From: Gemmata obscuriglobus
GTDB lineage: Bacteria; Planctomycetota; Planctomycetia; Gemmatales; Gemmataceae
Reading direction: 5' to 3'
Assembly (NCBI RefSeq): GCF_008065095.1
Contig: NZ_CP042911.1
Location: forward strand, 5,220,001-5,252,000
DNA length: 32,000 nt
Made by a program: the position numbers and the translations under genes. The notes under the pieces are model-generated. The model did not search any database. It saw only the letters and a program-made list of their open reading frames with translations, and was not told where the DNA came from. Below, piece by piece: positions 1 to 12,708 of the stretch; position 1 is the first letter of the stretch; each line of letters begins with the position of its first letter.

Positions 1-156
1 CGTGTCCCGAGGCACCGCCAGCCGCGCCCAACCGCACCTCGCGGCGACGAGCCGCGCCCACCCCGACCGGCACCACGCGGAGCCCGACGCGCCGGCGTCA
101 CCTTCGCGGATCACACGCCCACCGCCGCCGCACGCGCGATCGAGCGCCTCGGGGTT
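1..156 (-). repeat. ORF-less cassette family U, partial copy cut by the window edge
   Basis: Aligns by eye with the attC-distal part of units 2051-2385 and 7850-8185. Contains the hairpin motif CGCGGCGACGAGCCGCG at 40-56 and the conserved tail ...CACGCGCGATCGAGCGCCTCGGGGTT abutting the core at 157. Confidence 0.7.
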
Positions 157-247
157 GCCGAACAAACAGCTCACCTGCACCGCCATCACCGGATGAGCGA
201 TGCGCCTCAAATCAGATGGCGGTGTCAGGTGCAGCGCCGGGTTCGGC
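157..247 (-). repeat. attC-like structured inverted repeat (copy 1)
   Basis: GCCGAAC(157-163)-AAACA-GCT-CACCTG-CACCGCC / loop ATCACCGGATGAGCGATGCG... / GGCGGTG-T-CAGGTG-C-AGC-GCCGG-GTTCGGC(241-247). Read directly. Confidence 0.7.
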
Positions 248-254
248 CTTGAGC

Positions 255-410
255 CTAGTCCTTGCCAAGCACCAAGTCCACCACTCGAAAGCCCCGGACG
301 TGCGGACCGGAGCTGCGGCAGTGACCGAGCAACTGCTCGTCCTCGCACCCGACGTCTTGGAGCGCGTCGGCCAGGACCGGCATCGCGGAGAACTCCCGCG
401 ACACATCCAT
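255..410 (-). CDS. 51-aa ORF encoding a conserved C-terminal-type module (...LADALQDVGC...HCR..GPHVRGFRVVDLVLGKD); possibly the severed 3' part of the upstream cassette gene
   Basis: ATG 410-408, TAG 257-255. Translation is MDVSREFSAMPVLADALQDVGCEDEQLLGHCRSSGPHVRGFRVVDLVLGKD. I recognise this motif as recurrent in planctomycete/myxobacterial proteins but do not recall the family name. It is in the same frame as the upstream ORF tail (444-485), separated only by TGA 441-443. Confidence 0.45.
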   Translation of the reverse strand: MDVSREFSAMPVLADALQDVGCEDEQLLGHCRSSGPHVRGFRVVDLVLGKD

Positions 411-490
411 CTGACGGGCCAGCGCCAGAGCCGTGCCCGATCACCATCGCTCGGAGAAACTCACCGCCACCTTCTCAAGGAAGACTTCGA

Positions 491-1558
491 TAGGACTTAC
501 GTAGTTGACTTTTGGGTAAGTAGGTATGTAGGTGCGGCGAGGTAGGTTCGCACCGCTTCGCGCACGATGGCCGTCTTGGCCGCGAACCAACTGACGCCGG
601 ACTTGAGCCGGTGCCACTCGAGCCGCAGGAACGCGCGGATCGCGAGCCCGATGTGGACCGCTTGGGCCCGGCTCATGCGCACCTGGCACCGGTCCACGTG
701 GCAATGCTGCTTGAGGCCCCGGTGATACTCCTCGATGCCCCACGCGTGCCCGGCCAGAACCGCACGAGTGGCCTCGTCCATGTCGAGGTCGTTGGTGATC
801 CAATGCTCCGTGCCCCCATCACCGGTGGCGATCCGGAACGCCTTCACCAATCCGAACCCCTCCAGGTGCACCACCGTACCGGCGGCCCCGATCGGGCACC
901 CCTCGATGGCCCGATTGCCCGTGCGATCCGGGTTCACCCGCCGGTTGCTCCGCACCCGGGTCAGGAAGTGCCACCCCAGGGCCCGCACCGCCTTCAGGTT
1001 GTCCTTGCCCGAGTACCAGGTGTCGAACAGTACCACCCGGGGCGACAGGTCCCGTCCCTTGGCGACCGCCAGCATGGCTCGGAAGTGGTCGTTCTTGGTC
1101 TCGGCTCGGGCCGGGTCGGCGAGCCGGTAATCACACGGTACCAGGGCGGCCCCGTCGGTCCACAGCAGGGTCACCAGCCCGATCCCGCTCACCACCCGGC
1201 GGTGCCGCCCGGACCAGCACCGGCGCACCAGCCCCATGTGCCGGGCGAACGGCTTGTCCAGCACCGAGTCGTCGAGCACCACGGCACCGCCCGGGCGGAC
1301 CGACGACCGGGCTTCGTCCCACAACGCCGCTGGGTCCGGTTCCAGCCGGTGCAGCAGTCGGGTGAACGCATCATGCGCGGGCGCCGTCGGATGGTCCGGT
1401 TGGGCTCGCGCGGCTTCCGCGGCCGACGCCACCTTGGGGGTGGCGATCAGGAATTGGATGTAGTCCTCGGCGCTCGCACGTGGTGCGTTCATGGCCCGAT
1501 CATAGACCAACAACACACCATGCGCAAATCCTGCGCCAGCGCAACTGCGTAAGTCCTA
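491..1558 (-). mobile_element. IS701-like (IS4-superfamily) insertion sequence with 5-bp target duplication
   Basis: Terminal inverted repeats TAGGACTTACGTAGTTG (491-507) and CAACTGCGTAAGTCCTA (1542-1558) match 16/17. Direct repeat TTCGA lies at 486-490 and 1559-1563. A single transposase ORF fills the element. Confidence 0.85.
497..1516 (-). CDS. DDE transposase, IS701-like
   Basis: 339-aa ORF. Motifs ...VLFDTWYSGKDNLKAVRALGWHFLTRVRSNRRV... and ...WGIEEYHRGLKQHCHVDRCQVR... are typical of IS701/IS4-type DDE transposases. Family assignment is from memory. Confidence 0.8.
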   Translation of the reverse strand: MLLVYDRAMNAPRASAEDYIQFLIATPKVASAAEAARAQPDHPTAPAHDAFTRLLHRLEPDPAALWDEARSSVRPGGAVVLDDSVLDKPFARHMGLVRRCWSGRHRRVVSGIGLVTLLWTDGAALVPCDYRLADPARAETKNDHFRAMLAVAKGRDLSPRVVLFDTWYSGKDNLKAVRALGWHFLTRVRSNRRVNPDRTGNRAIEGCPIGAAGTVVHLEGFGLVKAFRIATGDGGTEHWITNDLDMDEATRAVLAGHAWGIEEYHRGLKQHCHVDRCQVRMSRAQAVHIGLAIRAFLRLEWHRLKSGVSWFAAKTAIVREAVRTYLAAPTYLLTQKSTT

Positions 1559-1939
1559 TTCGATCTCCGTGTCGCTGTTGTTGCCCACGAACTCCCCGAA
1601 CACCCCGCCCAGGAACGACCAGCCCCCACGGTCCATCAGCACTGCGAGTTTGTCGAACGGGATGCGGACCAGCCACTCCGGTTGCTGCCCCTGGGCTACG
1701 AAGTACTCACGGGCGACAGTCACCAAGTCGTCGATGCTCCGAACTCCGGGGTCGCAAGAGTCGGCGAGGTCGCCTTCGGGTAACTCCTGCTCCTGCCACC
1801 CCCACACACCGGAGTCGGAGGCGAATGCGTCGTGGAGGCCGTCAACCTCGTCGGACCACACTTCCGGCACGTCATGTTCGCGGTAGCTGAAGACGAACTT
1901 GGCTCGCCGGCCCGCAGTGCGGTTCTTACCGTCTCCCAT
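1556..1939 (-). CDS. Cassette ORF, hypothetical 127 aa, 3' end displaced by the IS insertion
   Basis: ATG 1939-1937 is preceded by GGAGGGG, about 20 nt after the attC-like core. The stop TAG (1558-1556) is supplied by the IS terminus. Removing the IS and one TSD copy restores ...DTEIEVFLEKVAVSFSERW* using 441-485. Confidence 0.7.
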   Translation of the reverse strand: MGDGKNRTAGRRAKFVFSYREHDVPEVWSDEVDGLHDAFASDSGVWGWQEQELPEGDLADSCDPGVRSIDDLVTVAREYFVAQGQQPEWLVRIPFDKLAVLMDRGGWSFLGGVFGEFVGNNSDTEIE

Positions 1940-1959
1940 CCGCTGCGTCCCCTCCGGTG

Positions 1960-2050
1960 GCCGAACGAACAGCTCACCTGCACCGCCATCACCGGATGAG
2001 CGGTGCGTCCCAAGTCAGCGGGCGGTGTCAGGTGCAGCGCCGGGTTCGGC
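1960..2050 (-). repeat. attC-like structured inverted repeat (copy 2)
   Basis: Cores GCCGAAC 1960-1966 and GTTCGGC 2044-2050. Consensus arms with bulged T and C on the right arm. Loop class ATCACCGGATGAGCGG. Confidence 0.7.
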
Positions 2051-2385
2051 TCGCTCACGTCCGCGCCGCGCATCCGCGGAAGCCCGCCCACCGGTGCGGG
2101 CGGGCGGAGCACCACCGACCCGATGCGCCGTGTCGCGGCCCACCGGAGGCCACCCACTGCCACCCGCGGCGATGAGCCGCGCCCGGCACCCCCGGGCACC
2201 ACGCGGAGCCACCACCGACCCGCACCGCCGTGTCCCCACGCGCCGCCAGCCACGACCAACCGCACCTCGCGGCGATGAGCCGCGCCCGTCGCACTCGGGC
2301 ACCACGCGGAGCCCGACCCGCGGCGTTTACTCACGCGGACCACACGCCCACCACCGCCGCACGCGCGATCATGCACGCGGTGGTT
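2051..2385 (-). repeat. ORF-less cassette family U, copy U1
   Basis: 335 bp between attC-like sites. Two ~100-bp sub-repeats each carry CGCGGCGATGAGCCGCG (2165-2181, 2268-2284). Essentially identical to 2900-3234. Confidence 0.75.
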
Positions 2386-2475
2386 GCCGAACAACAAGCT
2401 CACCTGCACCGCCAGGATGAAGTGCGCATGACAACGGTGGCCGATGGCGGTGTCAGGTGCAGCGCCGGGTTCGGC
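2386..2475 (-). repeat. attC-like structured inverted repeat (copy 3)
   Basis: Cores at 2386-2392 and 2469-2475. Same arms, with a different loop class (AGGATGAAGTGCGCATGACAACGG...). Confidence 0.7.
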
Positions 2476-2808
2476 TCGCTCACGTCCGCGCCGCGCATCC
2501 GCGGATGCCCGCGCCACCGATGCGGCCACGCGGAGCACCGCCGACCCGGAGCACCGTGTCGCCGCACGTCGGAGGCCACCCACCACCCCCACTCGCGGCG
2601 ACGAGCCGCGCCGACCACCGACCGGTGTTGGCGGAGCGCCACCGACCCGAACCGCCGTGTCCCCACCCGCCGCCCGCCACGCCCAACCGCACCTCGCGGC
2701 GACGAGCCGCGCCCGCGCCCACCGGCACTCTGCGGAGCCCGACGCGCGGGGTTCACCCACGCGGACCACACGCACACCGCCGCACGGGCGCTCCAGCACG
2801 CGAGGGTG
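2476..2808 (-). repeat. ORF-less cassette family U, copy U2 (diverged)
   Basis: 333 bp with the same block order as U1, carrying substitutions and indels. Contains the perfect palindrome GCATCCGCGGATGC and two CGCGGCGACGAGCCGCG hairpins. Confidence 0.75.
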
Positions 2809-2899
2809 GCCGAACGAACAGCTCACCTGCACCGCCATCACCGGATGAGCGGTGCGTCCCAAGCCCGATGGCGGTGTCAGGTGCAGCGCCGGGTTCGGC
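2809..2899 (-). repeat. attC-like structured inverted repeat (copy 4)
   Basis: Cores at 2809-2815 and 2893-2899. Consensus arms. Confidence 0.7.
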
Positions 2900-3234
2900 T
2901 CGCTCACGTCCGCGCCGCGCATCCGCGGAAGCCCGCCCACCGGTGCGGGCGGGCGGAGCACCACCGACCCGATGCGCCGTGTCGCGGCCCACCGGAGGCC
3001 ACCCACTGCCACCCGCGGCGATGAGCCGCGCCCGGCACCCCCGGGCACCACGCGGAGCCACCACCGACCCGCACCGCCGTGTCCCCACGCGCCGCCAGCC
3101 ACGACCAACCGCACCTCGCGGCGATGAGCCGCGCCCGTCGCACTCGGGCACCACGCGGAGCCCGACCCGCGGCGTTTACTCACGCGGACCACACGCCCAC
3201 CACCGCCGCACGCGCGATCATGCACGCGGTGGTT
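2900..3234 (-). repeat. ORF-less cassette family U, copy U3 (duplicate of U1)
   Basis: Reads the same as 2051-2385 by eye. The ORF-track translations through the two copies are identical. Confidence 0.75.
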
Positions 3235-3325
3235 GCCGAACGAACAGCTCACCTGCACCGCCATCACCGGATGAGCGGTGCGTCACAAGTCAGCGGGCGG
3301 TGTCAGGTGCAGCGCCGGGTTCGGC
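3235..3325 (-). repeat. attC-like structured inverted repeat (copy 5)
   Basis: Cores at 3235-3241 and 3319-3325. Consensus arms. Confidence 0.7.
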
Positions 3326-3659
3326 TCGCTCACATCCGCGCCGCGCATCCGCGGATGCCCGCCCACCGGTGCGACCGGGCGGAGCACCACCGAACCACGG
3401 CGCCGTGTCCCGACACATCGGGGGCCACCCACCACCGCCACACGCGGCGATGAGCCGCGCCCGCAACCGATCGGTCTCAGCGGAGCACCACCGACCCGCA
3501 CCACCGTGTCCCCATCCGCACCCGGCCACAACCACCGCAAGCTCGCGGCGACGAGCCGCGCCAGCCCCAACCGGCACCACGCGAAGCCCGACGCGCGCGG
3601 TTCACCACCGCGGACCACACGCACACCGCCGCACGCGCGCCCTCATGCACGCGATGGTT
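3326..3659 (-). repeat. ORF-less cassette family U, copy U4 (diverged)
   Basis: 334 bp with the same block order and two hairpin motifs (about 3443 and 3543). Confidence 0.75.
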
Positions 3660-3750
3660 GCCGAACATAAAGCTCACCTGCACCGCCATCACCGGATGAG
3701 CGGTGCGTTCCAAGTCAGCGGGCGGTGTCAGGTGCAGCGCCGGGTTCGGC
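3660..3750 (-). repeat. attC-like structured inverted repeat (copy 6)
   Basis: Cores at 3660-3666 and 3744-3750. Consensus arms. Confidence 0.7.
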
Positions 3751-4179
3751 GTACCGTGTCGATCGGGCGCCCAGCCAGAAGCAAGCGGCAGCCCCGACCA
3801 CGGCGTCCGCCGTCACCCCACCCACCAGCAGCCAGGCGAGTGGTTTTACTTGCCCTCCCCGGAACACCACTAGGAGAAGGAAGCAGAGCACGCCTGTGGC
3901 GACCAGACCGCTGAACAGGTAGCCGAACAGATTGGCCGGCGCCCTGTCGGGTCGCCTCCACCGGTACAGCGACCAGACCAACCCGGCCGTTGCTCCGATC
4001 ACCGCCCCGCAGGGGGGGCCAAAGAGATAGAGAACAAGCCCGAGGGCATTGAAGCCCTCCCCGGGCTTGGGAGGGAACATCCGGGGCTGGATCAATTCGA
4101 CGAAGGCAACTGCACCGAGAAAAACGAGCACCGCACCAGCAACAGCCGCAGCCAGGGTCCAGCCGATGACACGAAGCAC
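3715..4179 (-). CDS. Cassette ORF: small 4-TM membrane protein (~154 aa)
   Basis: Proposed GTG start at 4179-4177, 6 nt after AAGGTG (alternative GTG at 4188). Four hydrophobic spans: WTLAAAVAGAVLVFLGAVAFV, ALGLVLYLFGPPCGAVIGATAGLVW, LFGYLFSGLVATGVLCFLLLVVF, LAWLLVGGVTADAVVGAAACFWL. The 3' end runs into the attC-like site. Confidence 0.55.
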   Translation of the reverse strand: MLRVIGWTLAAAVAGAVLVFLGAVAFVELIQPRMFPPKPGEGFNALGLVLYLFGPPCGAVIGATAGLVWSLYRWRRPDRAPANLFGYLFSGLVATGVLCFLLLVVFRGGQVKPLAWLLVGGVTADAVVGAAACFWLGARSTRYAEPGAAPDTAR

Positions 4180-4242
4180 CGCGTTCACCTTGGGTTGTCG
4201 GCCCGTACTAGAGCGGAGTGCTTTTGCACGAGAGCCTCTGTG

Positions 4243-4333
4243 GCCGAACAAAGAGCTCACCTGCACCGCCACCATCGGATGAGCGGTGCGTCCCAAGTCA
4301 GCCGGCGGTGTCAGGTGCAGCGCCGGGTTCGGC
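4243..4333 (-). repeat. attC-like structured inverted repeat (copy 7)
   Basis: Cores at 4243-4249 and 4327-4333. Consensus arms. Confidence 0.7.
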
Positions 4334-4340
4334 TCTGTCC

Positions 4341-4718
4341 TCAGCGCGGTCGGCGCATGACGACGAGAGTGCGTCCTCCGCTCGCGGTGTCCAAGCTCAC
4401 GACCAGTTGAGCGTAGGCCGGGGCGCCCTGCAGCCGTACTTCTTCGATCACTGTGCCGTCGTCGTCCTGTGCCCGACAGATCATCGACCCACCTGGCCCG
4501 AGACATGAACCGCCGGCAAGGGATTTGCGGTATGGTCCCGGCAATCGGGGCGGGGCCACGACCTCCCACCCATCGTATCCGGCCACGACGGCTTCCAGGG
4601 AGACGAACGGTCGCTCCTGTCGTGTGGCCGATTCCGCGTGCCGGCCCCAGGGTGACAGCCAATAACCGGCACACCCCGCACCGAGTAACACGACGACCAC
4701 AAGCCACCGCACCCGCAT
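4341..4718 (-). CDS. Cassette ORF: putative lipoprotein (125 aa)
   Basis: ATG 4718-4716 follows GGAAGGGGGA. N-terminus MRVRWLVVVVLLGAGCAG is a signal peptide with a lipobox-like LLGAGC. Stop lies 8 nt before the attC-like site. Confidence 0.65.
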   Translation of the reverse strand: MRVRWLVVVVLLGAGCAGYWLSPWGRHAESATRQERPFVSLEAVVAGYDGWEVVAPPRLPGPYRKSLAGGSCLGPGGSMICRAQDDDGTVIEEVRLQGAPAYAQLVVSLDTASGGRTLVVMRRPR

Positions 4719-4735
4719 CCGATCCCCCTTCCGGT

Positions 4736-4848
4736 GCCGAACGATGAAGCTCACCGGCCCGGCCGCGACACCCGTGTGCGGCAGAGACGCGCGGGGAGCA
4801 ACGGGAAACAAACTACATGGCCGGGTCCGGTGCAGCGCCGGGTTCGGC
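4736..4848 (-). repeat. attC-like structured inverted repeat (copy 8, covarying stem, long loop)
   Basis: GCCGAAC(4736-4742)-GATGAA-GCT-CACCGG-CCCGGCC / 55-nt loop / GGCCGGG-T-CCGGTG-C-AGC-GCCGG-GTTCGGC(4842-4848). Stem bases changed on both arms; bulged T and C retained. Confidence 0.7.
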
Positions 4849-4871
4849 GTGCCTTTGCTCCAGGCGGGCGG

Positions 4872-5249
4872 CTACATGACGTGGATGTCCTTGAGCCGCA
4901 CCACCTGCCCGCCCTGCACGCGGACCAGCCAGAACGTCGCGGTCAGGTCGGAAGCCACCCCGTCGATGTTGAGGTCGTACCAAATCTCGCCCACCGCGTC
5001 GGACCCGTCGGCCGCTTCCCAGCGGTCCACCACCCTGCGCTGGGGAAGCCCACGCGACTCGCCCGCGACGGTAGCGCGTCCGCCAGAGCCCTCGATCGCC
5101 CACCGCACGCGGTTCGGTGCCCAGCGCCCCTCGTCAGGAGGGATCAACTCGTTCGCGGCCTCGTAGTCGCCTTGCTCCAGAAGTCCCACCCAGCGATCGA
5201 CCAGCGCCACCAACTCAGCGTCGGTGGCGGCCTCTGGTAGTGGCGACAT
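4872..5249 (-). CDS. Cassette ORF: hypothetical protein (125 aa)
   Basis: ATG 5249-5247 lies 18 nt after the core of the upstream attC-like site; TAG at 4874-4872. Acidic soluble protein ending ...DLTATFWLVRVQGGQVVRLKDIHVM. No family recognised. Confidence 0.65.
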   Translation of the reverse strand: MSPLPEAATDAELVALVDRWVGLLEQGDYEAANELIPPDEGRWAPNRVRWAIEGSGGRATVAGESRGLPQRRVVDRWEAADGSDAVGEIWYDLNIDGVASDLTATFWLVRVQGGQVVRLKDIHVM

Positions 5250-5266
5250 GGATCAGCGCCTCGGGT

Positions 5267-5356
5267 GCCGAATGTGGAGCTCACCTGCTCGCGCGCCCTG
5301 GAGGGGGCGATCCCCGAGTTCTGCATGCGCGAGTCTGGTGCAGCGGAGGGTTCGGC
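5267..5356 (-). repeat. attC-like structured inverted repeat (copy 9, covarying stem; extra third arm at 5395-5413)
   Basis: GCCGAAT(5267-5273)-GTGGA-GCT-CACCTG-CTCGCGC / loop / GCGCGAG-T-CTGGTG-C-AGC-GGAGG-GTTCGGC(5350-5356). In addition, 5395-5413 GGTGAGCTCCACATTCGGC is the perfect reverse complement of 5267-5285. Confidence 0.65.
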
Positions 5357-5552
5357 CCCGCGCCCCACCACGCCGAACATGGGCTGCCCGTGAAGGTGAG
5401 CTCCACATTCGGCCCCGCTCATGCAGCCCGGCAGATGAGCTACACCGATCCGCTCGCGCCTCGGGGGTGGGCGCGGGTCGGGCCAGCCACTTGGGATGGG
5501 GGGCTGGCTACCCTATCGACATCGCGCCCACCCCCGTGGGTCTCGGCGCGGG

Positions 5553-5642
5553 GCCGAACAGAAAGCTCACCTGCACCGCCAGGATGGAGTGAGCGACACA
5601 ACGGCGGCTGATGGCGGTGTCAGGTGCAGCGCCGGGTTCGGC
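5553..5642 (-). repeat. attC-like structured inverted repeat (copy 10)
   Basis: Cores at 5553-5559 and 5636-5642. Consensus arms. Loop class AGGATGGAGTGAGCG.... Confidence 0.7.
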
Positions 5643-6002
5643 TCGCTCGCCTCCGCGGTTCCGGGCGACACGCCGAGCTTGGCGCATCCGCGGAACCCGC
5701 GGCACCGGTGCGGCCGAGCGGAGCCCCACCGACTCGAATCGCCGTGTCGCGGCCCACCGGTGGCCACCCATCACCGCACCTCGCGGCGACGAGCCGCGCC
5801 CGCCCTGACGCGCGCCACGCGGAGCACCACCGACCCGAACCGCCGTGTCCCCACCCGCACCCCGGCCACGCCCAACCACACCTCGCGGCGACGAGCCGCG
5901 CCCGCCCCGACCGGCACCACGCGGAGCCACCACCGACGCGTGGGCGTCACCTTCGCGGACCACACGCCCACCACCGCACGCGCGATCCAGAACGCGAAGG
6001 TG
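5643..6002 (-). repeat. ORF-less cassette family U, copy U5
   Basis: 360 bp, same block order, two CGCGGCGACGAGCCGCG hairpins. Confidence 0.75.
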
Positions 6003-6093
6003 GCCGAACATAAAGCTCACCTGCACCGCCCCCTCCCAGGGAGCGATGCGTCACAAACTCGCGGGCGGTGTCAGGTGCAGCGCCGGGTTCGGC
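6003..6093 (-). repeat. attC-like structured inverted repeat (copy 11)
   Basis: Cores at 6003-6009 and 6087-6093. Loop class CCCTCCCAGGGAGCGATGCG. Identical to copy 14. Confidence 0.7.
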
Positions 6094-6446
6094 TCGCTCC
6101 GCACCGCGGTTCCTGGCCACGGGCCGAGCGTCGCGCATCCGCGGAGCCCGTGCCACCGGTGCGGGCGTGCGGAGCACCACCGACTCGACGCACCGTGTCG
6201 CGGCCCACCGGAGGCCACCCACCACCGCACCTCGCGGCGATGAGCCGCGCCAGGCACCCACGGGCACCACGCGGAGCACCACCGACTCGAACCGCCGTGT
6301 CCCCACGCGCCCCCGGCCACGCCCACCCGCACTTCGCGGCGACGAGCCGCGCCAACCACCGACCGGCACCACGCGGAGCCACCACCGTCTGATGCCCCGC
6401 GGACCACACGCCCACCGCCGCCCGCGCGCTCCAGAACGCCCGGGTG
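6094..6446 (-). repeat. ORF-less cassette family U, copy U6 (identical to U8)
   Basis: 353 bp. Reads identical to 7406-7758, and the ORF-track translations are identical. Confidence 0.75.
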
Positions 6447-6538
6447 GCCGAACAATCAAGCTCACCTGCACCGCCATCACACGATGAGCGGTGCGCCCCG
6501 AATCAGCGGGCGGTGTCAGGTGCAGCGCCGGGTTCGGC
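6447..6538 (-). repeat. attC-like structured inverted repeat (copy 12)
   Basis: Cores at 6447-6453 and 6532-6538. 6-nt unpaired spacer AATCAA on the left arm. Confidence 0.7.
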
Positions 6539-6955
6539 GTCTGTGAGCCACCGCACTGCGAAGTGGTCGTAGTGCAGGGCCGCGAACCGCTCGCGGAGTT
6601 GGGCCGCGAGCCACCAGAACTTGGCCCGGCGGTCGGCGGTCAGACCCGGGTCGGACCACACAGATAGCCGGCGGGAGCACCCGGCGACCACCTCCGGCGG
6701 GGCCGGTAGGTCAGGGCCGGCGGCCAGTTCTGCGCTGTCGGCCAACACCTCCGCTCCCTCCTCCAACCACGCCACCACGGCCCAGGAGGTGAACCGCACC
6801 CGGAAACCGGTTGGGCTACGGGCTTCGGGTGCTAACTCGGCCTGGACCGACCGCCGACCGCACTGTCGGCCATCGAAGTACGCGACAGCCGCAGCCAGAG
6901 AGAAGTCACTCGACGCCGGCAAGTGCGCCAACATCTTCAGACGACCGTCGCTCAT
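6503..6955 (-). CDS. Cassette ORF: hypothetical protein (150 aa)
   Basis: ATG 6955-6953 (MSDGRLKMLAHL...) lies 15 nt after the core, with AGAGGG upstream. The track's longer N-terminus (MMAVQVSFMFG) is a translation of the attC loop. The C-terminal tail ...AEPGAAPDTAR is encoded by the downstream attC-like site. Confidence 0.6.
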   Translation of the reverse strand: MSDGRLKMLAHLPASSDFSLAAAVAYFDGRQCGRRSVQAELAPEARSPTGFRVRFTSWAVVAWLEEGAEVLADSAELAAGPDLPAPPEVVAGCSRRLSVWSDPGLTADRRAKFWWLAAQLRERFAALHYDHFAVRWLTDAEPGAAPDTAR

Positions 6956-6970
6956 CCGCGGCCCTCTGGT

Positions 6971-7061
6971 GCCGAACATAAAGCTCACCTGCACCGCCAT
7001 CATCGGATGAGCGGTGCGTCACAAACGAGCGGGCGGTGTCAGGTGCAGCGCCGGGTTCGGC
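6971..7061 (-). repeat. attC-like structured inverted repeat (copy 13)
   Basis: Cores at 6971-6977 and 7055-7061. Consensus arms. Confidence 0.7.
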
Positions 7062-7314
7062 TCGCATGACTCCGCGGTTCGGGGGCGCACGCCGAGCGTC
7101 GCGGCTCCGCGGAGCCCGGGCCACCGGTGCGGCCGAGCGGAGCACCACCGACCCGCATCACCGTGCTGCCGCACACCGGAGGACACGACCAACCGCACCT
7201 CGCGGCGATGAGCCGCGCCGGCCACCCACCGGCACCACGCGGAGCCCGACACCGGAGTTCGCCCACGCGGACCACACGCCTACCGCCGCACGCGCCCTCA
7301 TGCACGCGAGGGTT
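7062..7314 (-). repeat. ORF-less cassette family U, short copy U7 (one sub-repeat)
   Basis: 253 bp with only one CGCGGCGATGAGCCGCG hairpin (about 7200). Head and tail blocks are as in the other copies. Confidence 0.7.
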
Positions 7315-7405
7315 GCCGAACATAAAGCTCACCTGCACCGCCCCCTCCCAGGGAGCGATGCGTCACAAACTCGCGGGCGGTGTCAGGTGCAGCGCCGGGT
7401 TCGGC
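7315..7405 (-). repeat. attC-like structured inverted repeat (copy 14)
   Basis: Cores at 7315-7321 and 7399-7405. Identical to copy 11. Confidence 0.7.
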
Positions 7406-7758
7406 TCGCTCCGCACCGCGGTTCCTGGCCACGGGCCGAGCGTCGCGCATCCGCGGAGCCCGTGCCACCGGTGCGGGCGTGCGGAGCACCACCGACTCGA
7501 CGCACCGTGTCGCGGCCCACCGGAGGCCACCCACCACCGCACCTCGCGGCGATGAGCCGCGCCAGGCACCCACGGGCACCACGCGGAGCACCACCGACTC
7601 GAACCGCCGTGTCCCCACGCGCCCCCGGCCACGCCCACCCGCACTTCGCGGCGACGAGCCGCGCCAACCACCGACCGGCACCACGCGGAGCCACCACCGT
7701 CTGATGCCCCGCGGACCACACGCCCACCGCCGCCCGCGCGCTCCAGAACGCCCGGGTG
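7406..7758 (-). repeat. ORF-less cassette family U, copy U8 (identical to U6)
   Basis: See 6094-6446. Confidence 0.75.
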
Positions 7759-7849
7759 GCCGAACAAATAGCTCACCTGCACCGCCATCACCGGATGAGC
7801 GATGCGTCACAACTCAGATGGCGGTGTCAGGTGCAGCGCCGGGTTCGGC
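7759..7849 (-). repeat. attC-like structured inverted repeat (copy 15)
   Basis: Cores at 7759-7765 and 7843-7849. Consensus arms. Confidence 0.7.
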
Positions 7850-8185
7850 TTCGTCGCTGGCAGTTGCGGTTCCGCGAAGCCCGCGCTCGTACCGCGCATC
7901 CGCGGAGCCACCACCGACACCCACCACCGTGTCGCGGCCCACCGAGGGCCACCCACCACCGCACCTCGCGGCGATGAGCCGCGCCGACCACCGGCGGGCG
8001 CCACGCGGAGCGCCACCGACCCGAACCGCCGTGTCCCCATGCGCACCCGGCCACGCCCAACCACACCTCGCGGCGGCGAGCCGCGCCAGACCCGATCGGC
8101 ACCACGCGGAGCCCGACCCGCGGGCGTCACCCACGCGGACCACACGCCCACAACCGCCGCACGCGCGATCGAGCGCCTCGGGGTT
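7850..8185 (-). repeat. ORF-less cassette family U, copy U9
   Basis: 336 bp with two hairpin motifs; the second is the variant CGCGGCGGCGAGCCGCG. The tail is the same as in the partial copy at 1-156. Confidence 0.75.
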
Positions 8186-8277
8186 GCCGAACCAGGAGCT
8201 GAGCTGCAAGCCGCCCCTCTCAGGGCGGTCTCCCCTTGCTCCCGCGACGGCTTGTCAGCTCCAGCGGGGGGTTCGGC
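8186..8277 (-). repeat. attC-like structured inverted repeat (copy 16, covarying stem; extra third arm at 8315-8338)
   Basis: GCCGAAC(8186-8192)-CAGGA-GCT-GAGCTG-CAAGCCG / loop / CGGCTTG-T-CAGCTC-C-AGC-GGGGG-GTTCGGC(8271-8277). In addition, 8315-8338 is the perfect reverse complement of 8186-8209. Confidence 0.65.
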
Positions 8278-8511
8278 CGACGGCCGCCTCCTTCCGCCAG
8301 AGGGTGAGTGAGCGTTGCAGCTCAGCTCCTGGTTCGGCCGCCGCCGGATCCGCTCAGCCCACCGGGGACATCGCACGGCGGGAGATCACCATGCGACCTC
8401 AGGCCGCTCGGATCGGCGGGCCCTCGCCGGTCGCCTTCACCAGGGGGGAGGTGGCGACAACCTTACGACCGCCCGCCGATCCGCGGCGCGTACAACCACC
8501 TCACGGCGGCG

Positions 8512-8602
8512 GCCGAACGAACAGCTCACCTGCACCGCCATCATCGGATGAGCGATGCGTCCCGGAACAGATGGCGGTGTCAGGTGCAGCGCCGGGTTCG
8601 GC
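8512..8602 (-). repeat. attC-like structured inverted repeat (copy 17)
   Basis: Cores at 8512-8518 and 8596-8602. Consensus arms. Confidence 0.7.
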
Positions 8603-9065
8603 CTCGGGTGCGACACGAGCCAGCCAAGGGCGGCTCGTCTGAGTCGGCAACGAGGCCGGGGGAAGGCGGCTCGCCCTCGGCCAACGCTACTATGCCCTCG
8701 GCCTCCTCCTGCTCGGCGTCACTCATGCCGTCGAGGATGCTCCGCACGTTGTCGCCGTACATCCTCGCGGCCAACAGCGGAGCCAACTCGCGAAAGTCCG
8801 GCCCGTCGGTGCCAAAGTTCAAGAAGTGCTCGAACAGCACCTCCGACCCACGCTTGTCCTCGACTTCCCGCTTGTGCGGGCCGATACCGATCCAGTTGAC
8901 TTGCCCGTCGATGCCGTTGGACACGGCCTCCGAGCCGATGCCGCCGACGCCGACGACCGCATCGTACTCGCGGTCGCGGACGATGCCCATGCAGTCATGC
9001 ACACCGAAGCAACCGCTCGCGTCGGGGTCGCCGTTGTGCGTTCGCTTGTAAACTAGCACTCGCAT
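8580..9065 (-). CDS. Cassette ORF: hypothetical protein (161 aa)
   Basis: ATG 9065-9063 lies 6 nt after GAGGAG and 22 nt after the attC-like core. MRVLVYKRTHNGDPDASGCFGVHDCMGIVRDREYDAVVGVGGIG... looks like a globular conserved protein, but I do not recognise the family. The 3' end reads into the attC-like site. Confidence 0.7.
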   Translation of the reverse strand: MRVLVYKRTHNGDPDASGCFGVHDCMGIVRDREYDAVVGVGGIGSEAVSNGIDGQVNWIGIGPHKREVEDKRGSEVLFEHFLNFGTDGPDFRELAPLLAARMYGDNVRSILDGMSDAEQEEAEGIVALAEGEPPSPGLVADSDEPPLAGSCRTRGRTRRCT

Positions 9066-9087
9066 GACGGCTCCTCGACCTTCTGGT

Positions 9088-9178
9088 GCCGAACATAAAG
9101 CTCACCTGCACCGCCATCATCGGATCAGCGATGCGTTCCGAATCAGCCGGCGGTGTCAGGTGCAGCGCCGGGTTCGGC
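9088..9178 (-). repeat. attC-like structured inverted repeat (copy 18)
   Basis: Cores at 9088-9094 and 9172-9178. Consensus arms. Confidence 0.7.
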
Positions 9179-9183
9179 GTGCC

Positions 9184-9588
9184 TTATTGGGCGTCGCGGG
9201 CCTCCTGCCGCAGCTCCGCCAGATACACCTCGAAGCTGCCGTACCGCTCCTCGACCTCGTGGGCCTCGTGTTGGTAGAACCCGACACCCCACATGGCACC
9301 ACCGCGGTCCACGAACCAGTAGTCCCCAGCCCCGTTGGTGCCGACGACGAGGTAGCTCGCTGGCCACGGCTCCTCGTCCTCACCAACGGTCATCCAGGCC
9401 GCCCGCTGCCGCGCCGCCAAATTCTCTCGGATGATGGCATCCGCGTCGGTCCACAGCACAGCGCGTTGCGGGAGGGTCGCCTTGATCCGGCGAACTTCGT
9501 CAGCGTGGCGGCGGAGGAAGTCGCGGTACTCGCCGGGCAGCGGATGGCCGAGCGCCGACTCGATCCGGGCAACCTCGGCTTCGCCCAT
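9184..9588 (-). CDS. Cassette ORF: SMI1/KNR4 (SUKH-1) family protein, immunity-protein-like (134 aa)
   Basis: MGEAEVARIESALGHPLPGEYRDFLRRH... plus ...YLVVGTNGAGDYWFVDRGG...GFYQHE match the SMI1/KNR4 pattern (N-terminal 'LP.eY..FL', central 'G.GdY' block). ATG 9588 lies 17 nt after core 9606-9612, with GGAGGG upstream. Confidence 0.75.
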   Translation of the reverse strand: MGEAEVARIESALGHPLPGEYRDFLRRHADEVRRIKATLPQRAVLWTDADAIIRENLAARQRAAWMTVGEDEEPWPASYLVVGTNGAGDYWFVDRGGAMWGVGFYQHEAHEVEERYGSFEVYLAELRQEARDAQ

Positions 9589-9605
9589 CCGAGAGCCCTC
9601 CGGGT

Positions 9606-9830
9606 GCCGAACCAGTGTTTAGTGTGCGAGGCTTCGCGCAATAACACGGGATGATTTCACCCGGCGCACCACGCGCCGGGAACCGAACTACTTGCCGGAA
9701 CTGTCGTTACCGTGTGAAGGGCGTCTTCACAATATGCGCAACAACACGGTAATGGGCCGTGCGAAACTTCGACTCACACCTTCACGGCTCGCACAATAAC
9801 ACGGTAACGGTCCGTGCGAACGTGAACGTT
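9606..9830 (-). promoter_or_regulatory. Array boundary: lone core half-site (GCCGAAC 9606-9612) followed by a repeat-rich non-coding region; candidate attI-like / regulatory region
   Basis: The core is present, but no arm sequences and no partner GTTCGGC follow. Three direct copies of GCRCAAYAACACGG lie at 9636-9649, 9736-9749 and 9791-9804; the last two extend to ~32 nt (...ACACGGTAAYGGKCCGTGCGAA). An inverted partial copy GTTACCGTGT lies at 9706-9715, and a hairpin CCGGCGC-ACCAC-GCGCCGG at 9661-9679. Confidence 0.4.
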
Positions 9831-10151
9831 ACTTCGGTGCTTCTCGCGGTGATCTTTGCTTTCTAGTTGCACGGGCCGGCGCATTCTCTCGCGCCGATCG
9901 GGCCGACACGATCAGAAGTGTACCCACGTCGTCGCCCGCGCTCAAGACCCTTATCCCGATTCGGTCCAGTGTCTGCGCGCCCGTTCGCCCATCTCGTTCC
10001 GCCGGCGCCGCACTCATTGCGCCGCTCGCGGAGCCATCCCACCTCCCGCACACTGAACATGATTCCTTGACATACCCACCCCGGCGGCACCAGCGGACGG
10101 GGCAACACAGCGTCTTCCGGGCTCCCAACCGATCACCAAGGCCGTACCCAC

Positions 10152-10182
10152 TTAAAACGCCCGGCTGGAGGATCAGCCGGGC
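10152..10182 (-). terminator. Rho-independent-type terminator downstream of 10211-11482
   Basis: Stem GCCCGGCTG (10159-10167) / CAGCCGGGC (10174-10182) with loop GAGGAT. On the minus strand it is followed by GTTTTAAG. Lies 29 nt after the stop codon. Confidence 0.6.
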
Positions 10183-10210
10183 GCAGTTTCAGACCGAGCA
10201 GTCCACCGGA

Positions 10211-11482
10211 TCAGCTCTTTTCATCGTCCTTGTCTTCCACTGACCGGATGAACTCCAGCGCGCCACGCCGCACGCCCCCGACGGCACGCCAGTAGCCCAC
10301 TACCACGATTAGCCAGCCCATCAGGATCGCCGCCTGCTCGTAGAGCAGCCAATCGGCGTCCGGCTTCTTCGGGCGCCCGTGAATTACGTACTGCTCCCAC
10401 CCGACGATTACGAGAACCGGAATGAGGGCGAAAAGGAACCCGAGCCACCCGACCTGCCGGGCCACCTTCGGCCGCTTGAGCGCGAGCCCGCTGGCGGTCA
10501 GCGCGGTGAGGAACCAGAACTCCGCCAGCGGGGCGGACACGAGCAGCGCCAGCCGCGCGTACTTCACCTCCTCCGGGAACGGCACCTTCTCGCACACGAT
10601 CCAAACCGGCACGGACACGAAGGCGACCAGGGTCAGGAGACCGCTCAGCGCGAACATTCCGCCGGCGCCGCTGTTCCGCGGGGCGCCGCCGCTGAACAGC
10701 CGCCCGATCACCATCAGGAACCCGGCCAGCGCGCCGAGCAGCCCGTAGGTGGCGAGGTTGATTTCGTCGGACTTCGAGAGCGGGATCGAGTTCGGCCCGC
10801 CCGAGTTGATGTAGCCTTCGATCTGGACCCACCCCTCGCCCTTGGGCAGTTCGCCGACGGAGCGAGTGTAAACCGCTTTGCCGAACTCGACGAACCCGAG
10901 CAGCGCGACGAACAGCAGCGAGAACCGGACCCAGAAGAGCCCGCGGCGCACGGACGCCCACTTCTTCGCGAGCACCTGTTCGGGGTTCTTCTCCGCCGCC
11001 TTCTTCTTGGGCTCGGGCGCGGCCGGCTTGGGGCGCGGCTTGCTCCCGCGGTCACCTCGCTTGGGCGCGGGCGGCGGTGCGTCCGGGTCCGGTTCGAGTT
11101 CGGGCGGCGGGGCCGACGGGAACGGCCGCGACGCGGCGGTCGGCACCGGGCCGGTGGCGGCGGGTTGGTTCGGCAGCGCACCCCAATCGGCCGCGGCGGC
11201 CGGCGACTCGGGCAGTTTGGCCCGCACCGGCGCGACGGGCGGGCGCGACGGGGCCGGGCGCGGCTGCGACGGCGGCAGCAGGTCCGACTCGAACGCGGGC
11301 CGCGACGGGGCCGGGGGCGGCGGCGGCGGCTCGACCGGGACCGTCGGCGCGGCCCCGCCCTCTTCGGGCACCGGCACCGGCACCGCGGTCTGGCAGTACG
11401 GGCACTTCACCCGCTTACCCGCGGACTCGTCGCGGGCGCGGAACCGCTTCCCGCACGACGGGCACCCCAGTGTGATCGGCAT
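10211..11482 (-). CDS. Zinc-ribbon / Pro-rich linker / multi-TM membrane protein (423 aa)
   Basis: N-terminus MPITLGCPSCGKRFRARDESAGKRVKCPYCQ has CxxC...CxxC. A long P/A-rich linker is followed by several hydrophobic spans in the C-terminal half. Confidence 0.8.
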   Translation of the reverse strand: MPITLGCPSCGKRFRARDESAGKRVKCPYCQTAVPVPVPEEGGAAPTVPVEPPPPPPAPSRPAFESDLLPPSQPRPAPSRPPVAPVRAKLPESPAAAADWGALPNQPAATGPVPTAASRPFPSAPPPELEPDPDAPPPAPKRGDRGSKPRPKPAAPEPKKKAAEKNPEQVLAKKWASVRRGLFWVRFSLLFVALLGFVEFGKAVYTRSVGELPKGEGWVQIEGYINSGGPNSIPLSKSDEINLATYGLLGALAGFLMVIGRLFSGGAPRNSGAGGMFALSGLLTLVAFVSVPVWIVCEKVPFPEEVKYARLALLVSAPLAEFWFLTALTASGLALKRPKVARQVGWLGFLFALIPVLVIVGWEQYVIHGRPKKPDADWLLYEQAAILMGWLIVVVGYWRAVGGVRRGALEFIRSVEDKDDEKS

Positions 11483-11553
11483 AATTTCTCCAGCACCAAG
11501 GAACTCGCCGCGTCGCCAAATAAAGATCCCACCTACCGGTGGGGCGGCCGGCG

Positions 11554-12561
11554 CTATTGTGCGGATTCGGAACCGGAACGGTTACTCTCCGCGGCCGCGC
11601 GCCCGGCCGCAAAGAGCGAGTAGTGAATGAACGAGTACGCGGCATTAAACAGGTAGACGACCAAGAGGCCGCCCAAAAGGAGGCCCGCGCGCTGTGCGAC
11701 CGGTATCGGGGCGGCAGGCGGTGCGGGCCGCGCCGCGGGGACCGGCGCCGGGCGCGGCAGAAACTCCGCAAACAGACCGGCATAGATGATCAGCGCCATG
11801 AGCACGACCCAGGCGGACACCATCAACTGGAGCGCCAGCGCGACCGCTCCCGCCCGCCGGCGGAGCCGGTCGGTCGGCAGCGCGCCGCCGACAACTCCCA
11901 TCCCGGCGACTACACTCACTTCCGCCACGAAGCCGGCAACGGCAGCGAGCGCGTACAGCCGTCCGACCCACTCGGTCCCCACCGCCCGGTCGCCGCGGCT
12001 CACCAGCGCGAACGCCACGAAGAGCAGCGCGCAGAGGAGCGCCAGGAACCGCAAACCGCTCAAGCAGAACGCGCCCATCAGGACGCCCAAGCCGCTGGTC
12101 CCGGCCGGCAACTGCAGCATCATCAACCGCCCGGCGCAGACGCAGCCGGTGCCGACGAGGAGGAGGCCAAAGAACACGGGCGCAGAATAGTCGCTGTTGA
12201 CCCGAGCAACCGGGATCACTCCGAGCCGCCCAAGCCCCACACCCGCCACGACCATAAACATTAGCGTGACGGCAAGGAACTCCGTCACGATGCCCCACTC
12301 GACCCACCGACACCCGCGGGCGAACGACCGCCACGGCCCCGCCGAGCCGTGCCCCGCGGTTCCGCGAGTGCGGCGGCCCGGCACCGGCGATTTGCGGGTC
12401 ACCGGCGGCTCGCCCTCATCGGGAATCGGAAGCAGTTCGACCTCTGGGCCCGGCACGGTCGAGAGCGCCTTGCAGTGGGGGCACCGGACCAATTGTCCGG
12501 CCCGGTGCTCCGGTGCCTCAAGCGGTTCGTCGCAGTGCGAGCAGGTGAGCGAAATCGGCAT
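11554..12561 (-). CDS. Zinc-ribbon multi-TM membrane protein, paralog-like of the downstream gene (335 aa)
   Basis: N-terminus MPISLTCSHCDEPLEAPEHRAGQLVRCPHCK has CxxC...CxxC. The C-terminal half is hydrophobic. Confidence 0.75.
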   Translation of the reverse strand: MPISLTCSHCDEPLEAPEHRAGQLVRCPHCKALSTVPGPEVELLPIPDEGEPPVTRKSPVPGRRTRGTAGHGSAGPWRSFARGCRWVEWGIVTEFLAVTLMFMVVAGVGLGRLGVIPVARVNSDYSAPVFFGLLLVGTGCVCAGRLMMLQLPAGTSGLGVLMGAFCLSGLRFLALLCALLFVAFALVSRGDRAVGTEWVGRLYALAAVAGFVAEVSVVAGMGVVGGALPTDRLRRRAGAVALALQLMVSAWVVLMALIIYAGLFAEFLPRPAPVPAARPAPPAAPIPVAQRAGLLLGGLLVVYLFNAAYSFIHYSLFAAGRAAAESNRSGSESAQ

Positions 12562-12708
12562 CCACTGTTTCCAAAGGGAAACGACCGGCCAACCCTTTGT
12601 GCCATTTGCGACATGCTAAGCGCAACAGCGCCCGGGCGGAACCCCCCGGGCGCCGGAAAAGCCGCGGCCGGGGTCCGCGCGGCGCGGTGGTGCCGGCGGC
12701 ACGGGGCG

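Follow-up and report, generated by a model that had tools for sequence, protein, structure and literature searches.

A long integron cassette array without an integrase gene of its own in Gemmata obscuriglobus

How does an array of integron cassettes come to stand in a chromosome with no integrase gene beside it, and what could still move its cassettes? The question is raised by a stretch of 32,000 nucleotides (nt) from the planctomycete Gemmata obscuriglobus (RefSeq assembly GCF_008065095.1, contig NZ_CP042911.1, positions 5,220,001 to 5,252,000 of the forward strand), analysed as a whole and hereafter called the window. An earlier sequence-only reading, made from the letters of the window and a list of its open reading frames (ORFs), had described an array of attC-like recombination sites at its left end. 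Our analysis puts the probability at roughly 0.9 that positions 1-9820 are the attI-proximal end of a sedentary chromosomal integron array without its own integrase gene, that is, a cluster of attC sites lacking integron integrases (CALIN).

The window contains 61 copies of the heptamer GCCGAAC, where shuffled sequences contain 12.9 +/- 3.7, and the surplus consists of paired cores between positions 157 and 9612. When these cores are paired, exactly 18 elements result, each 90-113 nt long and each on the + strand, together spanning 157-9178, and a lone GCCGAAC half-site is left without a partner at 9606-9612; the count, common orientation and terminal half-site first reported are thus borne out. 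The 16-nt stem GCTCACCTGCACCGCC is present in 15 exact copies, on the + strand only, with 1.4 expected when up to 3 mismatches are allowed. The 18 elements are given below; unless other evidence is named, each was identified by core pairing, by register and by a covariance model, and for some a single-stranded DNA (ssDNA) fold is added.

157-247, + strand: attC site of canonical type, its bottom strand on + (model score 106.9 bits)
1960-2050, + strand: attC site (also ssDNA fold)
2386-2475, + strand: attC site
2809-2899, + strand: attC site
3235-3325, + strand: attC site, left out of model training
3660-3750, + strand: attC site
4243-4333, + strand: attC site of cassette c12
4736-4848, + strand: attC site, 113-nt variant with compensated stem, left out of training (62 bits, fold)
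5267-5356, + strand: attC site with variant core GCCGAAT, belonging to the structured ORF-less cassette c10 (also fold)
5553-5642, + strand: attC site
6003-6093, + strand: attC site, identical to 7315-7405
6447-6538, + strand: attC site with a 6-nt spacer
6971-7061, + strand: attC site
7315-7405, + strand: attC site, identical to 6003-6093
7759-7849, + strand: attC site
8186-8277, + strand: attC site, compensated-stem variant, with a perfect copy of its own 5' arm at 8315-8338 (also fold)
8512-8602, + strand: attC site
9088-9178, + strand: attC site of the attI-proximal cassette c1

All 18 copies share one register, in which a 7-nt core is followed by a spacer of 5-6 nt, a GCT+6+7 stem and a loop of 32-54 nt, and the 3' arm then runs through 7 nt, T, 6 nt, C, AGC, 5 nt and GTTCGGC. 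The sites are about 95% identical to one another. The R-box cores are GCCGAAC/GTTCGGC in 17 of 18 copies, with GCCGAAT in the one at 5267, and 15 of the 18 stems are identical; the stems at 4736, 5267 and 8186 differ in sequence, their pairing kept by compensatory changes and their T and C bulges retained. The core and the 16-nt stem that the sequence-only reading had assigned to every copy therefore hold for 17 and 15 copies, respectively.

For comparison, Nivina et al. 2016 (PMC5027507) describe the bottom strand of attC as having an R' box RYYYAAC, an R'' box GTTRRRY and a central spacer that stays unpaired. Two extrahelical bases, one at position 16 (usually G) and one at 23/24 (a conserved T), lie 6 bp of stem apart on the arm facing AAC, and the terminal structure is variable. 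In the window elements the central spacer is unpaired in ssDNA folds, its 5'-arm side measuring 5-6 nt and its 3'-arm side 5 nt, and the bulges fall at positions 16 and 23 from the 3' end, 6 bp apart, in all 18 copies: 7 nt of R'', 5 nt of spacer and 3 bp place the first bulge at 16, and 6 bp more place the T at 23. The terminal loops are of several sequence types. The elements thus match every sequence-level property of attC sites in that description. Two departures noted earlier are real and lineage-wide. Core position 4 is G/C and not the consensus Y/R, as in 147/150 related sites, and the bulge at position 16 is C (144/150 sites) instead of the usual G, whereas the T at position 23 (147/150) is the consensus base.

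On the + strand, AAC lies on the 5' arm and the bulges on the 3' arm, which makes + the bottom strand and means that the cassettes are read on minus, as originally proposed. Folding as ssDNA reproduces the attC fold (for the site at 1960-2050, -27.9 kcal/mol, z -4.3). The complementary strand also folds with bulges, on the opposite arm, so the expectation that only one strand would present two bulges fails, and the informative test is which arm carries them.

A covariance model of the site, built from 21 copies with three window copies held out of training, recovers 18/18 window sites at 62-107 bits, including the three held-out copies. It finds no further match anywhere in the 32-kb window and none in 63 kb of other G. 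obscuriglobus DNA. Related loci were gathered with a 20-mer of the attC 3' arm (among the matches listed many arose by chance, and G. obscuriglobus itself was absent), and the model identified same-strand arrays of the same site type in G. algarum, Gemmata sp. SMAG_U3706, Gemmata sp. IIL30 and several metagenome-assembled genomes of Gemmataceae and Planctomycetota. Across 150 related sites, in an alignment fitted to our own covariance model, 95.4% of stem cells are paired and compensatory changes occur in 12/16 stem pairs; none of 500 shuffles reaches this level, and slid controls pair at 30-41%. The R box is nearly invariant in these sites and shows no compensatory change. Rfam, which contains no attC family, has no match over the array at gathering thresholds or at E<=1. 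The identification as integron attC sites is upheld by the geometry, by the covariation of the stem and by the integrases that adjoin the same site type, described below. A contig binned as Alcaligenaceae (L012; loci fetched for comparison are designated L plus a number) also carries an integrase gene and attC sites, one of which (106 bits) is almost identical to the G. obscuriglobus consensus; it is probably mis-binned planctomycete DNA.

The array extends well beyond the window. The window is the reverse complement of part of CP025958.1 (GCA_003149495.1), a window position x corresponding to record position 2,800,374 - x, on a chromosome of 9.0 Mb. A leftward walk along the array by exact-protein look-ups tallied 37 same-strand attC sites by record position 2,809,877, 56 by 2,819,699, 75 by 2,829,228 and 96 by 2,838,816, where the array was still running and its distal end had not been reached, giving a total of at least 96. 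The window therefore covers no more than the 18 cassettes nearest to attI. The array is chromosomal, exceeds the 10-19 attC sites associated with sedentary arrays and has highly similar sites, as sedentary chromosomal arrays do. It also has what defines a CALIN, two or more attC sites without an integrase gene (intI) within 4 kb: the window alone contributes 18 of the 96 or more sites counted, and no intI occurs in the 22 kb to their right or in the 48 kb of array read to their left.

Arrays of this assembly have been catalogued before. IntegronFinder 2.0 (PMC9024848) reports 345 attC sites in five clusters, and its Table S3 lists, for GCF_003149495.1, CALINs of 39, 47, 133 and 48 attC and one complete integron of 78. 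The second assembly of the species has the elements of that table in exactly the opposite order, which indicates that the numbering is positional; another G. obscuriglobus array lies at a higher coordinate. From the count of at least 96 sites and the positional order, we infer that the window array is most likely integron_03, the 133-attC CALIN. Planctomycetota are on the published list of integron-carrying phyla, and Ghaly et al. 2021 provide a Planctomycetes-specific attC covariance model for a chromosomal class recognisable in both structure and sequence. In the literature searched, the running text of the papers found contains no discussion of Gemmata arrays. The array is nevertheless an already known kind of element: the literature contains planctomycete integrons, CALINs, integrases co-oriented with cassettes and paralogous non-coding cassettes, and the novelty of the array had been overestimated at first.

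Where, then, is the integrase? The 32-kb window encodes no tyrosine recombinase, as the sequence-only reading had stated. No intI lies within 22 kb to the right of the array or in the 48 kb of array read leftward, and no intI remnant lies in 9600-12600. The integrase gene that adjoins the array in a complete integron is thus missing from this locus. Two genes to the right of attI, of 423 and 335 amino acids (aa), were considered as recombinases and rejected, being zinc-ribbon and multi-pass membrane proteins without a family match. The product of each of these adjacent minus-strand genes (10211-11482 and 11554-12561) has a zinc ribbon (CxxC...CxxC) at its N terminus and several membrane helices after it; that of 10211-11482 has a proline-rich linker in addition.

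The genome does encode an integron integrase. The search for such a gene proposed earlier located a full-length intI (L136 6000-6968; 427 bits to TIGR02249, cut-off 265) 3.85 Mb from the window array, at the upstream end of a second array at 6.64 Mb and co-oriented with the cassettes of that array, which is the catalogued 'complete' integron of the genome. Among the fetched loci, an approximate IntI1 sequence served purely as a probe, and its matches were confirmed with TIGR02249. TIGR02249 integrases adjoin the same attC type at four further loci (L007, L012, L063 and L119), each just past the half-site, at the cassette-upstream end and on the cassette strand, so that intI sits at the attI end in all five loci where it was seen. 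These integrases resemble, at 65-72% identity, ordinary soil and freshwater proteobacterial IntI, for example that of Methylomonas; the best 120 matches of the L007 integrase are proteins of other organisms at 64-72% identity, none of which is the IntI of G. obscuriglobus itself. In this L007 integrase (1204-2058; beside the array of Gemmata sp. SMAG_U3706), roughly the first 42 profile positions are missing, and the gene may be a 5'-truncated pseudogene or an assembly artefact.

Although it has no integrase gene, the window array retains the region that would receive cassettes:

9606-9820, + strand: attI-type region, with the crossover core GCCGAAC at 9606-9612, an imperfect inverted repeat and three direct copies of TCGCGCAATAACACGG

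The 16-nt direct repeat TCGCGCAATAACACGG lies at 9634-9649, 9734-9749 and 9789-9804, with an inverted partial copy at 9705-9715, and a 41-nt repeat links 9725-9765 and 9780-9820. In 840 kb of fetched sequence searched, the TCGCGCAATAACACGG motif is confined to the attI ends of arrays, and it may be an integrase-binding site. In the complete integron, the stretch that separates intI from the first cassette matches window positions 9602-9769 at 80% identity (137/172) and contains one copy of the motif fewer. The homology ends at ...GCGAAACTT, exactly at the position of the intI stop codon in the complete integron, from which it follows that the window CALIN keeps the whole attI and lacks only the gene. 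The cassette-upstream end of the array thus carries what is found there in a complete integron, a half-site followed by 165 nt at 80% identity. The first 85 nt of the region are 83.5% conserved at an array end of G. algarum. That array end (L039 6712-7133; strain JC673, contig_178) shares the attI core of the window, has a tRNA-Cys gene about 270 nt away and has no intI within 7 kb. A second G. algarum array end (L021 54-82) shares only the first 22 nt and then continues into an inverted-repeat element.

Identical units point to recombination between the two G. obscuriglobus arrays. Cassette c1, next to attI, is the same as a cassette deep in the complete integron, with 0 differences over 518 nt (window 9085-9612 versus L134 ~16780-16260), and the identity stops at the 7-nt cores, with attI on one side in the window and an attC site in the other array. 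Cassette c12 is 100% identical, core to core, to the fourth cassette of the complete integron (window 4243-4743 versus L136 8901-8409), and the neighbours are unrelated between the two arrays, the one in the window being the 113-nt variant attC. Within the window array, c5 and c8 are 100% identical from core to core (6003-6455 versus 7315-7767). Identical units delimited by cores and set in differing contexts are what integrase-mediated excision and insertion produce.

These observations suggest the following mechanism. The attC bottom strand, which is the + strand of the window, would fold into an imperfect hairpin recognised by the integron integrase, and the integrase would cut between A and C in the core (GCCGAA/C). 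The cassettes, read on minus, would be stacked behind attI at 9606-9820, and transcription is inferred to enter the array from the attI side. The only integron integrase of the genome, encoded 3.85 Mb away beside a paralogous attI and the second array, would most likely act in trans, inserting cassettes at the window attI and excising or duplicating others. That this distant IntI acts in trans on the window array we consider probable, judging from the sequences compared. Somewhat less firmly, we favour viewing the array, though it lacks an integrase gene, as a live satellite platform where cassettes are captured at the array's own attI by IntI made 3.85 Mb away; the shared cassettes were presumably moved by IntI-mediated recombination, which may still be ongoing.

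The most serious alternative is that this is a true integron array that has been inert since its intI was deleted, with shared cassettes that predate the loss or were transferred by homologous recombination or gene conversion. The locus has neither an intI nor a remnant of one, an insertion sequence (IS) sits within one cassette, the attC sites, at about 95% identity, would permit homologous exchange, and Cury et al. 2016 view many CALINs as degraded integrons. We nonetheless hold this fossil array to be rather unlikely, because every structural feature is kept in all 18 attC sites and a full-length intI is present in the genome. Moreover, c1, at the position of the latest insertion, shows 0/518 nt differences and ends at cores; homologous exchange would need a shared flank there, and attI offers none. 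Cassette c12, with the 113-nt variant attC as its neighbour, repeats the pattern. A far weaker contender is a complete integron with its integrase at the distal end, which we regard as very improbable. The array was still running at CP025958.1 2,838,816, short of its left end, and IntegronFinder calls an element 'complete' when intI lies within 4 kb of an attC. However, intI is at the attI end in all five loci seen and the attI end in the window has none, and the sole 'complete' element has 78 attC, against at least 96 here, and is located at 6.64 Mb.

Least credible, to the point of being nearly discounted, is the idea that the elements are repetitive extragenic palindromes (REP or their hairpin-forming doublets, REPIN), miniature inverted-repeat transposable elements (MITEs) or repeated terminators, with no relation to integrons. 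In favour of it, they are numerous and imperfectly palindromic, with a length of about 90 nt, and three variants lie inside longer perfect inverted repeats that look MITE-like. Such elements were expected to be scattered in both orientations and unlinked to ORFs; instead, the sites have a single orientation, alternate regularly with single co-oriented ORFs and are absent outside arrays, from both the 22 kb flanking the array in the window and the 63 kb of other genomic loci. Their bulges are fixed in position while the stem covaries, integron integrases adjoin them, and identical units are bounded by their cores. Several points do weigh against a CALIN served in trans. Recombination would depend on a distant gene, since neither the 22 kb on the right nor the 48 kb on the left contain an integrase; the core has C where GTTRRRY has a purine, and the first bulge is C and not the usual G. 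The IS in one cassette, and the absence of an ORF from roughly 40% of cassettes, would be compatible with decay of the array as well. A scan of 9400-10400 for sigma-70-like promoters, with a model that does not cover those of planctomycetes, found none, and equating the array with the 133-attC CALIN depends on its size (at least 96 sites) and on the positional numbering of the table.

What the cassettes carry falls into three groups. Seven have one minus-strand ORF each, and in 5/7 a GGAGG-like motif and an ATG lie 15-22 nt past the core, in agreement with the layout of a promoterless ORF plus attC, with a Shine-Dalgarno sequence near the core, that had been described from the sequence.

9184-9588, - strand: c1 ORF, 134 aa, SMI1/KNR4 (SUKH) family (Pfam PF09346, 1.3e-12)
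8580-9065, - strand: c2 ORF, 161 aa, no family (ORF list, Pfam)
6503-6955, - strand: c7 ORF, 150 aa, no family (ORF list, Pfam)
4872-5249, - strand: c11 ORF, 125 aa (weak DUF7668 match)
4341-4718, - strand: c12 ORF, 125 aa, signal-peptide-like N terminus, product probably secreted (ORF list)
3715-4188, - strand: c13 ORF, membrane protein, start uncertain (GTG at 4188 or 4179; ORF list)
1556-1939, - strand: c18 ORF, 127 aa, last codons replaced by the IS (ORF list, IS ends)
491-1557, - strand: IS within c18, 1,067 bp, with a DDE transposase (Pfam DDE_Tnp_1/DDE_5), 16/17 terminal inverted repeats and a TTCGA target duplication

The IS is a passenger and not part of the integron. It has three copies in the genome, the two others being identical and located at 1.13 Mb and 5.01 Mb. 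The stretch around one of these (L127; CP025958.1 5,010,685-5,031,680) looks like a defence island, with a Piwi-domain Argonaute beside a SEFIR/TIR protein, AbiEi/AbiEii, a Cas4-like nuclease, an HNH protein and a tyrosine recombinase of non-integron type. Elsewhere in both arrays, several cassettes encode an 84-aa protein matching ribosomal protein S21 (PF01165; L133 4810-5064 and 17282-17536, L134 14112-14366).

A second group, comprising nine full cassettes and one partial cassette of the window, forms a single ORF-less family, which we refer to by its module of about 101 nt; two more window units, c10 and c3, are also ORF-less.

1-156, - strand: 101-nt-module cassette, cut by the window edge (module alignment)
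2051-3659, - strand: four consecutive 101-nt-module cassettes (bodies 2051-2385, 2476-2808, 2900-3234 and 3326-3659)
5643-6446, - strand: two 101-nt-module cassettes (bodies 5643-6002 and 6094-6446)
7062-8185, - strand: three 101-nt-module cassettes (7062-7314, one module shorter; 7406-7758; 7850-8185)

Members are built of 2-3 modules with the invariant blocks GCTCCGCGTGGTGCC, GGCGCGGCTCRYCGCCGCGAG, GACACGG and GTCGGTGGT. Their top strand is 47% G and 7% A and leaves all three minus-strand frames open, which makes the listing of ORFs in ORF-less cassettes uninformative, and a conserved reading frame was rejected because the period varies between 99 and 106 nt and takes every residue modulo 3. 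The modules show no covariation on either strand and only one invariant 6-bp hairpin, have no Rfam match and are not matched by the attC covariance model. A metagenome scan with a 24-nt module motif gave two matches, both unrelated and without attC sites. The family accounts for about one third of the 96 cassettes read, fills the first three positions past attI in the complete integron (L136 7133-8317) and recurs at L073, L109, L069 and, in G. algarum, L018.

The third group consists of structured cassettes of the c10 family, with eight members in six Gemmataceae genomes, including window 5267-5558 and the distant c3 (8186-8525).

5357-5552, + strand: c10 body, with an anti-arm at 5395-5418 and then a long hairpin, P1 (comparative structure)
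8278-8511, + strand: c3 body, a distant member of the c10 design, with an anti-arm at 8315-8345 (comparative structure)

The homologues are at L076 1345-1644, L119 4862-5158, L028 842-1143, L045 1962-2265, L004 5141-5433 and L001 12195-12491, and the family has no Rfam match. The c10 anti-arm is a perfect complement of the attC 5' arm plus junction, and anti-arms lie about 40 nt downstream of attC in c10 and c3 and about 25 nt downstream in the L001 copy. On the bottom strand, helix 1, between the attC 5' arm and the anti-arm, has 24 pairs, of which 12 are compensatory (95.7% paired), and helix 2, a 16-pair hairpin, has 7 compensatory pairs (99.2% paired). None of 500 shuffles matches these values and slid controls are about 43% paired, although the sample is small and the structure was derived from the same sequences that were used for covariation. 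Where pairs mismatch, the top strand shows A.C and the bottom strand G.T, a bias shared with attC sites.

Because the bulged partner arm is kept alongside the anti-arm, two mutually exclusive folds are conserved. In an excised circle, the anti-arm at 5395-5418 would pair continuously across the junction (5548-5558 + 5273-5285); it covaries with the cleavage arm of attC and, in such a circle, with the junction. We speculate, and think it unlikely as things stand, that the c10 family carries a built-in ssDNA switch in which the anti-arm locks the crossover site in a bulge-free duplex, tuning the rate of its own excision or insertion; a cassette that set this rate itself would be behaving selfishly. 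Alternatively, the family may encode a structured antisense RNA. A 42-nt 'mini-attC' at 5372-5413 was considered and rejected, as it is not conserved in homologues. Both ORF-less families are candidates for selfish or regulatory non-coding cassettes.

How the array relates to known systems depends on the comparison. In Cury et al. 2016, a CALIN is a group of two or more attC sites from which any intI is more than 4 kb away; half of the known ones lie in genomes encoding IntI elsewhere, and IS are often nearby. The window array agrees in its attC sites without intI, in an IntI elsewhere in the genome and in its IS. It differs from a typical CALIN in being far larger, with at least 96 and probably 133 sites against a mean of about 5-6, and in retaining an entire attI-type region, homologous to the functional attI exactly as far as the intI stop codon. 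With the Vibrio cholerae repeat (VCR) arrays it shares a long chromosomal array, near-identical species-typical attC sites and small promoterless ORFs mostly of unknown function. The Gemmata arrays differ in their GCCGAAC/GTTCGGC cores, in a first bulge of C and not G, in an integrase that, where present, is co-oriented with the cassettes, and in the spread of G. obscuriglobus cassettes over five separate loci with a single intI. Non-coding cassettes make up 6-49% of Vibrio arrays, in paralogous families of up to 45 copies that are conserved between species and have been proposed to be selfish or functional (Boucher et al. 2006), and the 101-nt-module family parallels them.

The orientation of intI, which reads toward attI and the cassettes on the same strand in the complete integron and four related loci, is like that of the inverted integron-integrase group (for example Treponema), whereas the Gemmata-type integrases resemble proteobacterial IntI (Methylomonas). 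Cury et al. 2016 found this group to be paraphyletic, and integrases co-oriented with cassettes have been described. For the Planctomycetes attC model, the main text of Ghaly et al. 2021 does not mention the C bulge at position 16, the C at core position 4 or the attI motif.

As an integron array, the locus is nothing new in kind. It does make concrete the open question of whether CALINs are dead remnants or working platforms. With about 345 attC sites in five loci, one integrase, and a full attI in the largest integrase-less array, G. obscuriglobus would offer a natural system for trans-recombination between arrays.

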